From Stylophora pistillata (taxonomy: Eukaryota), in the NCBI RefSeq assembly GCF_002571385.2, contig NW_019217831.1:203172-267171 (forward strand): DNA of 64,000 nt, read 5' to 3'. Below are positions 6,301 through 9,300 of this stretch, one piece after another. The translations under genes and the position numbers were made by a program. The notes beneath the pieces were generated by a model. The model saw only the letters and a list, made by a program, of their open reading frames with translations, made no database searches and was not told the DNA's origin. The first letter of the stretch is position 1; each line of letters opens with the position of its first letter.

Positions 6301-9300
6301 GCTCACCACGTAGTTAGCTGTAGCTCAGTGGTAGAGGATCAGAGTTTGAAATTCAAAGGTCTGAGGCTCGATTCCTCGTAAGAGTTTATACTTTTCCTCT
6401 CTTCCACGTTCGTGCTTAGGTGAGGAAGCACCGTTCTTTATTAATCAACGCAGCGTTTTTGTTTTTTCCAGGCACTCAAGTTATCAAATCAGATTCTTAT
6501 TGAGAAATCTTTGTTGGGTTGGAAAGAAATTGAATATGAAGTGGTCAGGGATGCCGCTGACAACTGCATCACTGTGTGCAACATGGAGAATTTTGATCCT
6601 TTGGGAGTTCACACTGGTACGGTGTGCATGTATTAATAATGATAATAATAAAAATAATAATAACATTATTCTATGGCTGTGTCTCACAAGGACTGGGAAC
6701 TACCGAATTACTCGGTCGCTGGTACAGACCTCATTGCGTTCAGTCTGTACTGGCGACCTCGGTCAAGATTCTCCCTCACAGACCTCCCGCTCGGTTAGTA
6801 AGAACTAAATAATAGCACTCTTTATACATGTATATGCCAGTTGTGACAAGTGTGCATACCAGGCTGATTCGCAGGGCTTTAAGATCAGTTTCTGCAGCAT
6901 TAGGCATTCAGAGATATTTTGAATATATCAACAAAGTTGAAATGGTAAATTGGCCACCGTTACGATTAAAAAAGCTGACGTTTCGAGCGTTAGCCCTTAG
7001 TCGGAGCGAATAGAGGAATTGTGGGTTGTGTGTGCTTTTAAAGGCTCCATTTTCTGCCTTTAAAAGTACACACAACCCACAATTCCTCTAATTCGCTCCG
7101 ACGAAGGGCTAACGCTCGAAACGTCAGCTTTTATAATCGTAACGGTAGCCAACTTACCATTTCAACTTTGTTGATATATTCAAATTATTTGGTTACCCCC
7201 ACCGACGCAGCCCCAAACAGTTTCTTTAGAAACTATCAGCCTTTACACAGAGATTTTGTTACATCTTCTGCTAGGAATATTTGTCCAATCTAGGTTATCT
7301 TCCACCCCTCTTCTTTGTCGCTAACACTTTGCTCGTATCTACCTATACATCCCTCCCATTGCAAAGAGGCTTGTTAACGAATAGAAATGATGAATATAGA
7401 TTTGTTTTTTTACCAGGTGACTCTGTTGTTGTGGCGCCAAGTCAAACTCTGTCAAATGAGGAATACCACATGCTGCGAGAAACAGCCCTAAAGGTTTAGT
7501 TCCTTTCTGCACGTTATGATATTGAAATTCTGAAATAGGCCTTTTGCAGCTGGGGGTCACGTGATCAATTTTAGATATATATTATGGGATACAACTTGAA
7601 GGATACCAGAGATGGAAAGAGCATATCGAAAATACCAAAACGGCCAAGTTTGGGCCCCGGAAATTACAGAGTACTGTTTCTACAGCGGTTTGAACTTTCG
7701 GAAAATTTAGAGGATTTGTATGGAAAATGTTGCTGGAGAGCAAGGCCTTGCTCTCCAGCAACTTTTTCCTTATAAACCTTCTTATTTATTAAAAAATTCA
7801 GAGTGTCATCAAATCTCATTTTTGAATAACGGAGGCCTCAAACTTGGCCATTTTTTTATTTTCGAAGTGCTTTTTCCTTTTCTGAATTCGGCTAAGTTAT
7901 AGCCCAAAATTTCATGAAAAGTAGGTCACGTGATGGCTTAGCTGCCAAAGGCCTATTCTCTTTGTTTTCATAAGAGAGGTGACCTGCAGATGTGATTTAC
8001 AGTCGATTAATTATTTGTGTAGGATGTCCTTACGATCTTGAATTGACGCTTTTTGTTGTTAGGTTGTGCGCCATCTTGGTATAATTGGTGAATGTAACAT
8101 ACAATATGCTCTGCACCCCAAGTCTCTGGAGTACTGTATAATTGAAGTCAATGCCCGTTTGTCTAGAAGCTCTGCCCTCGCTTCCAAAGCTACAGGGTAA
8201 ATAGTATGTAGACTCCGCTAAGCTCAAGAGTAGAAATCTAGATTGTGTGATTTTCATTGTGTAACACAAGGAGTTACACCGTGACGTGACAAACAAAATT
8301 TTAATGGCTTAATCAGTGACCATATTTTTCTGTGTATGGGGCTCCGCACGCGCGAAGGCACTAGCCACGCTGATGACAACTGATAGTGCTCTTGTCGATC
8401 GAGAGTTTTAAACCAAAACAAAGGTAATCACATCGACCGTTTAGTACAAGCAGCAATATTGCAAAGAGTCCGCGGCAACTCGATGTGAAAAATGATCACA
8501 AACCTTAAGCATGGTATAAGTTTGAATTTGATTGGTTGAGAGAAAAGTGCAAGTTTTTTAAGCCAATCACAGATCGGACTAAACCCTTTCACTCCCAAGA
8601 TTTTAATTGTAATTCTCCTTACTGTCTGCCATCCAACTCATATGATGTTAGTCTGAAGAATTTGGTATTGGATCAACTAATAATTCCCTTATTGATATTT
8701 TTCTTTCTTCTCATTACTTGTCTGCTTGATATTGTATTGACATTGTAAAGAGAAATTCTGTCTTGGTCACTCATTTGGAGTGAAAGGGTTAAGGAATAGC
8801 GAAGATTGTCTTTGACACTCACGTCCTCCAAGTCCTTACTCTCTCTAAGGTTGCAAAATTCTCGACTTGAAATATCTTCCTTCTCGTTTAAGATTTCTTG
8901 TTGTTATTACCTTGCAGTTATCCTTTGGCATTCATTGCAGCCAAGCTCGCGCTTGGAATACAACTTCCTGACATCAAGAACTCCACAACAGAGCAAACAA
9001 CAGCTTGTTTTGAACCAAGCCTGGATTACATTGTCACCAAGGTTCAATACTCTCTCTCTCTCTCTCTGGCTAAATTGATAATGCGTTAAATGCAAACGCT
9101 AACAACAAAATTAACAGACTTAACCTTAGTATAGAAAAATGTTTCCTATTCATGGCATGTTTAATTATTTTCCTTCACTGTACAAGAACCTGAGAGGCAG
9201 AGACCAAAGCTAAATTTTTCCCGTCCGCATAAACGGCGTTCTTTCTCTCTCTTCTCAAGGAGGAAGTTCGAGAGAAAAACACCCAAACAACAGTGATTTT

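Follow-up and report, generated by a model that had tools for sequence, protein, structure and literature searches.

A fold-back insertion in an intron of a carbamoyl-phosphate synthetase gene

The window analysed here is a 64,000-nt stretch of genomic DNA from the coral Stylophora pistillata (contig NW_019217831.1). On its + strand, exons at 6472-6616 and 7417-7494 belong to a carbamoyl-phosphate synthetase (CPS) gene: they match consecutive parts of the ATP-binding domain CPSase_L_D2 (Pfam; E 1e-16 and 5e-6, respectively), and RNA reads show the downstream one to be expressed. Because the flanking exons match consecutive parts of this domain, we place the element at 6914-7250 in an 800-nt intron (6617-7416, + strand), and both matches confirm the location inside the CPS pre-mRNA that had been proposed in a first-pass annotation. 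The same intron holds a second high-copy repeat at 6676-6816, recognised by its very high contig depth.

The element had been described as near-perfect inverted arms of about 132 bp around a 10-nt loop, followed by a unique tail. The arms are borne out by alignment and folding energy: 6914-7045 and 7056-7188 align over 133 columns, 6 of them substitutions and 1 a gap, with 10 nt between the arms, and the hairpin RNA reaches -221 kcal/mol (z = -32, with 100 shuffles as control). The loop has the size given but is not a separate loop, its bases being part of a sense copy that starts at 7044, and the tail is family sequence (i.e., the tail of a Penelope-like element, PLE) rather than unique DNA. 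Specifically, with end positions counted from the ribozyme C3 (window 7098), the element resolves into two 5'-truncated pLTR copies: an inverted one on the - strand (6914-7045, by alignment), which lacks the tail and has a short 3' end at about +90, and a sense one on the + strand (7044-7247), truncated 53 nt before C3 and with a long 3' end at about +147. The two overlap at 7044-7045 in a 2-nt GC microhomology. The PLE tail (7189-7245, +, by alignment with family copies) is found on a single arm only; in longer family copies it continues into the leader ahead of the ORF.

A 7-bp direct repeat, CAGAGAT, stands on both sides (6909-6915 and 7248-7254, +, read from sequence) and is the probable target-site duplication of this copy; a border match of at least 7 nt also turns up in 5% of pairs of shuffled flanks. 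The joints listed from four contig sets, two of which (X3 and X4) have little or no coverage of the left flank at 6817-6910, include no empty allele, so the borders of this copy rest on the 7-bp repeat.

A minimal type I hammerhead motif with a C4 core

The right arm carries a motif at 7095-7128 (+) that parses as first proposed, with predicted cleavage after 7125. It has stems I and II, an extra nucleotide after A9, a G10.1-C11.1 pair, a palindromic remnant of helix III and an NUH triplet, and it fits the definition of a minimal type I hammerhead as worded in PMC4209133 except in the core CUGANGA, where position 4 is C. Judged by its sequence, it is a U4C variant of the minimal type I hammerhead, without the consensus core. 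A second motif lies on the opposite arm (6974-7007, - strand, by alignment), and the mutated core reported there was confirmed as a copy-specific change at core G8. The two motifs lie on opposite strands and face away from each other; identity as a non-LTR retrozyme was rejected on this orientation and on the absence of head-to-tail ribozyme repeats.

An Rfam scan of the window (E<=1) gave no match to a hammerhead family. Twelve sub-threshold matches were returned in the window, four of them over the element (three miRNA-hairpin models and one cis-regulatory hairpin), and a miRNA identity was rejected, as the miRNA matches reflect hairpin shape only.

All five relatives reported in the window were recovered, the four others lying near 1729-1773, 16810-16908, 29281-29521 and 32107-32480. 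The copy at 29263-29532 is head-to-head, belongs to an older U4 family and is bordered by a 17-nt direct repeat, as read in the sequence; that at 32095-32490 is a head-to-head copy of the C4 family, with arms about 150 nt of unrelated sequence apart and a 13-nt direct border repeat.

The parent element

We found that 7044-7246 is a dispersed repeat, and that the end of a GIY-YIG endonuclease precedes other copies of it. The longer copies hold, in a single frame, a reverse transcriptase (RT; Pfam RVT_1, E 1.6e-7), a C-X4-C-X2-C linker and a GIY-YIG endonuclease (EN; E 4.5e-4, just under the Pfam cut-off). A DKG motif can be read in the translations, as can the C-X4-C-X2-C zinc finger that links RT and EN, a linker common to the Neptune and Nematis clades (10.1101/2021.04.23.441226). 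One natural copy (L181) runs from RT through EN in a single frame and then into the same pLTR. At two loci (L222 and L224) the ribozyme region continues via the tail into the N-terminus of the ORF, and L224 has the order endonuclease end, pLTR with ribozyme, tail, ORF N-terminus, a layout that we identify as the partial-tandem pLTR arrangement of Penelope-like elements. The main ORF has its first ATG about 230 nt past the ribozyme C3.

Summed over three natural copies, the distance from ribozyme to ribozyme is about 3,028 bp; in the Neptune element of Acropora digitifera, the ribozymes, with the same motif but U at position 4, stand 3,033 bp apart (PMC4209133). We identify the source of 6914-7250 as the pLTR of an approximately 3-kb element of putative Neptune type with RT, zinc finger and GIY-YIG endonuclease, the Neptune label following the A. 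digitifera element in print, whose motif and spacing are the same. This Penelope-like family has been active recently, given that a 376-nt RT stretch is matched end to end at 100% identity by 12 loci besides the source copy (of 40 scored).

The first-pass annotation had called 6914-7250 an ORF-less, Penelope-derived mini-element. Its Penelope-type minimal type I hammerhead and its place in an inverted, 5'-truncated insertion both stand. The separate mini-element does not: identical sequence follows RT and GIY-YIG ORFs elsewhere in the genome, where the search for attached copies that had been suggested as a check did find them, and the fold-back junctions vary by copy.

Two observations on other loci of the family are added here. 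At L056:777-1913, L057 and L025, one reading frame runs without a stop through the whole pLTR and tail, a length of over 100 codons. At L017 and L023-L025 (G000:C192:361210-363294) we found at least four tandem 628-bp units, each with a ribozyme-bearing pLTR; this array may be retrozyme-like or a local duplication.

Two truncated copies joined head to head

The 3' ends of family copies were bimodal: among 45 position-ordered arms, 18 ended at +80..100, 23 at +143..156 and none between. Of 48 head-to-head pairs (a non-random sample with some duplicated loci, L006/L007 and L154/L160), 40 combined a long with a short end, 2 were long-long, 1 was short-short and 5 had an atypical end. A direct repeat of at least 7 nt was present at the outer borders of 34 of the 47 scored pairs, compared with 5% of 2,162 shuffled pairings. 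The 6914-7250 copy follows the same pattern: its long end is at 7245 and its short end near 6914, its arms share GC where they join, and CAGAGAT flanks it left and right. In the head-to-head pairs listed, the final bases of the long end are often part of the target duplication as well, which suggests priming on a few bases of complementarity between target and template.

From these end statistics we infer priming at both ends of a single staggered cut. As a whole, 6914-7250 is very probably explained as two truncated Neptune-type pLTR copies lying head-to-head, likely from a single insertion and likely inert in the intron. In such an event, the GIY-YIG endonuclease would make a staggered cut in the target, and both cut DNA ends would prime RT on the element RNA, at internal sites near +150 and near +90, the unequal sites leaving a tail on one side only. 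The two cDNAs would end early and join via a microhomology of a few bases, and gap filling at the staggered cut would yield the target duplication. The hammerhead would be part of the transposon's own cycle, its C4-family version being predicted to be slow or protein-dependent, and in the transcript of 6914-7250 it would be locked within the long duplex.

Several parts of this scheme have precedents. Inverted pLTRs, one-sided tails and target-site duplications of 8-10 bp are already known for PLEs (PMC3846280), and the inverted pLTR with one-sided tail and duplication is also reported in 10.1101/2021.04.23.441226. In vitro, two internal RT start sites bound the tail of a PLE and both DNA strands are cut and extended, and the ribozyme depends on protein but is not required for insertion (PMC11167929). 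That study saw no strand preference for either start site, which does not by itself explain the pairing of long with short ends.

Alternatively, the fold-back could have arisen by self-priming or template switching of a single cDNA, or on antisense RNA, instead of by priming at two ends. The 2-nt microhomology at the 6914-7250 junction and the 0-4 nt overlaps at many others would suit such a route, self-priming on an antisense template has been proposed (PMC3846280), and family RNA comes from both strands. We nevertheless consider it improbable: it offers no obvious reason for a fixed second end near +90 together with a target duplication, and copy-back of one cDNA cannot yield pairs such as L199, L029 and L087, because their tail-less arm extends further 5' than the tailed arm.

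It is very unlikely that the fold-back is instead a non-autonomous mini-element (retrozyme-like or MITE-like) copied as a unit by PLE proteins. Short ribozyme-bearing pieces are indeed very numerous (4,747 matches to a degenerate core), and animal retrozymes have been reported to derive from pLTRs (10.64898/2026.07.22.740005), but 6914-7250 contains no head-to-tail ribozyme repeat, and the 5' junction coordinates vary among 47 pairs, the -53/-41 junction of 6914-7250 being unique there. Since junction points differ from pair to pair (identical ones were found only where flank sequence is also shared), the hairpin is not a self-copying unit; each fold-back appears to have been made anew.

Where copies begin

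We recorded 5' starts in position-ordered samples of arms picked by a downstream anchor, with 5 + 1 arms beside N gaps dropped. About half of the copies start within -9..+5 of C3 (46/91 C4-family and 55/91 U4-family arms), and few start in -40..-10 (3 of 91 and 5 of 91, respectively). Contigs from other runs have loose ends with unrelated flanks at 7091-7092, where RNA depth also approximately doubles; inspection by eye showed no cap-derived extra G ahead of the 5' pile-up. This pile-up before C3 is probably the transcription start of the element, since a hard upstream edge with downstream scatter fits RT run-off at an RNA 5' end. The 6914-7250 copy would derive from a longer template, because its two starts lie at -53 and -41. 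The thousands of fold-back stubs are a record of where RT begins and probably also of where transcription does.

Starts exactly at the predicted cut site (+28) were found in 4/182 genomic arms, all at a 4-nt AGCT palindrome, and cleavage and microhomology are therefore indistinguishable at this position. The two families did not differ significantly at +25..+38 (C4 3/91 vs U4 7/91, p = 0.33; exactly at +28, 1 vs 3), and a smaller best-hit sample gave 1/40 at +28 and 4 more at +32..+34. Five loci (L257, L381, L361, L369 and L375) fold back perfectly about the AGCT palindrome whose first base is at the predicted cleavage site; they may represent either cleaved templates or palindrome-driven joins.

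The C4 state marks the youngest family

The C at core position 4 had been listed as a caveat of this copy. It proved instead to be the majority state of a family: genome-wide, the exact 34-nt motif occurs in 3,090 copies with C4 and 375 with U4, and 65/74 arms picked by the C4-family anchor and covering the position have C. Correspondingly, 62/68 U4-anchor arms have U. The family-specific downstream anchors numbered 5,404 (C4 family) and 647 (U4 family), these anchors leaving out other existing U4 families. A looser CUGA...GAAA genome pattern was discarded as too loose for counting (52,858 matches vs 23,891 for the reversed control).

Divergence from the family's own majority had a median of 3.7% in the C4 family (n=92) and 6.9% in the U4 family (n=90; p = 6e-9). 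C4 is derived and marks the youngest family, because U is the base found both in the published element and in three distant relatives from the window. Between the sister families, the motif differs at 1/34 positions (position 4 only) and the flanks at 16/117, a contrast that is suggestive and not significant (p = 0.12 in a similar test).

The core change of this youngest and largest family would be expected to weaken cutting, and we predict that the C4-family hammerhead cuts slowly, or cuts only with the element protein. PLE hammerheads are widely kept, poor cutters, and dispensable for insertion in vitro (PMC11167929). We tentatively, and with more doubt than confidence, propose a broader reading, in which the youngest and most abundant family arose with the U4-to-C change and outgrew its U4 sister about eightfold while the other 33 positions were kept. 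This would be a natural experiment indicating that selection on PLE ribozymes favours slow or protein-gated cutting, or a fold that serves as a protein-binding signal at the RNA 5' end, and not fast cleavage, with the 5' ends 6-9 nt before C3 marking the transcription start. The sister families, one core base apart and with the altered one younger and larger, form a clean pair for assay, and as a one-base natural contrast for PLE hammerhead function the family-wide change is of some specialist interest. Motif searches demanding CUGA would miss most ribozyme copies of the C4 family.

In the literature searched, no U4C core was found for a PLE; the supplement to the 16-family survey (PMC7229834) lay outside that search and may show a C4 family. 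In supplement file 2 of PMC4209133, CCGA or CYGA occurs in two places, neither of them in a core.

The insertion is likely inert in its host gene

The right-arm motif has the same sense as the CPS pre-mRNA, and the first-pass annotation had suggested that folding of the hairpin could act as a switch. By nearest-neighbour energies, the isolated motif prefers an inactive hairpin, with G5-G8 paired to the cleavage-site strand (-19.6 kcal/mol for two inactive monomers vs -9.5 for the active dimer), and the probability of the ribozyme pairs tested is <1e-16 when the full transcript is folded. Unique intron past 7270 had zero RNA depth in 4/4 runs (three of raw reads, one of contigs), and the depth of the next exon reached about 70 reads. 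Family RNA is abundant, with the strands about equal in raw runs. No pile-up of RNA read starts or ends was seen, at the cut site or elsewhere, in three raw runs and one contig set, which is weak evidence because the libraries were fragmented (the reads taken were 2-6% of each raw run). These pairing probabilities, the zero depth in unique intron and the missing pile-up leave the switch without support.

Excess conservation of the core among inserted copies, a further expectation of the earlier reading, was not observed in the C4 family: divergence from the majority was 3.1% in the core, 3.3% in the whole motif and 4.0% in the tail region, i.e., the core decays as fast as its neighbours. In RNA reads pooled from thousands of copies, apparent A>G changes at 7133 and 7147 were rejected as A-to-I editing, being family polymorphisms that also occur in genomic copies.

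In favour of a host effect, the orientation of the sense motif is that of the pre-mRNA, the inverted arm would be transcribed first, and ADAR or Dicer could plausibly act on a 133-bp duplex; even so, that the insertion acts on its host, through a conformational switch freeing the ribozyme to cut CPS pre-mRNA or through editing or dicing of the duplex, is scarcely credible for one of thousands of copies, with 7 differences between its arms, negligible ribozyme pairing in the full hairpin, inactive monomers that outcompete the active dimer, and neither reads in the unique intron nor a read-end pile-up. A host-gene role or switch is unsupported. The hairpin is likely inert debris in the CPS intron, given that it is a truncated insertion of a very common element with a published ribozyme motif, and it is probably of no consequence for the host gene.

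Comparison with known systems

The closest published relative is the A. digitifera Neptune element BACK01051917 (Cervera & De la Pena 2014, PMC4209133), which shares the 34-nt motif except at position 4 (U there, C in 6914-7250), nearly the same 12 nt upstream, the palindromic ACGU replacing helix III and the spacing of about 3.03 kb. Motif and context are therefore already published, and the same study describes solo motifs and opposite-strand motif pairs from truncated PLEs. EN+ PLE insertions (PMC3846280; 10.1101/2021.04.23.441226) likewise show head-to-head inversion, a tail at one end, a short target duplication and partial tandems. By contrast, the tail here measures about 57 nt (30-40 in those elements), 6914-7250 retains no ORF sequence, and a start of about half of the copies within -9..+5 of C3 was not found in the descriptions of EN+ PLEs drawn on from these two reports.

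The PAc Poseidon element (PMC11167929) resembles the present family in having two internal RT start sites that delimit the tail, a ribozyme near the ORF start and RNA-seq ends that are absent from the cut site, but it belongs to another clade, has a canonical core and places its first ATG inside the ribozyme rather than about 230 nt past C3. A viroid U4C hammerhead (cited in PMC3088659) has the same core change, with much lower activity in vitro and infectivity kept; there, however, it is a rare variant with a full helix III, whereas here it prevails in a family of thousands of genomic copies. Finally, Acropora millepora retrozymes (PMC7229834) are likewise small non-coding coral repeats with type I hammerheads, and more than 6,000 motifs in 16 families, mostly minimal PLE-like variants, are reported from that species. 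The retrozymes are head-to-tail repeats of 220-245 bp with canonical, efficient ribozymes, whereas 6914-7250 is head-to-head with a minimal core. In sum, 6914-7250 is a fold-back stub of a coral element of Neptune type that is already published, the U4C family state being the only feature not found in print among the sources consulted.

Other features of the window

Inverted-repeat elements that carry no hammerhead motif lie at 7581-7910, 22577-22703, 43677-43814, 3711-3826 and 52664-54149. At 40001-42000, the G+C content drops to 18%, compared with 31-45% elsewhere in the window.
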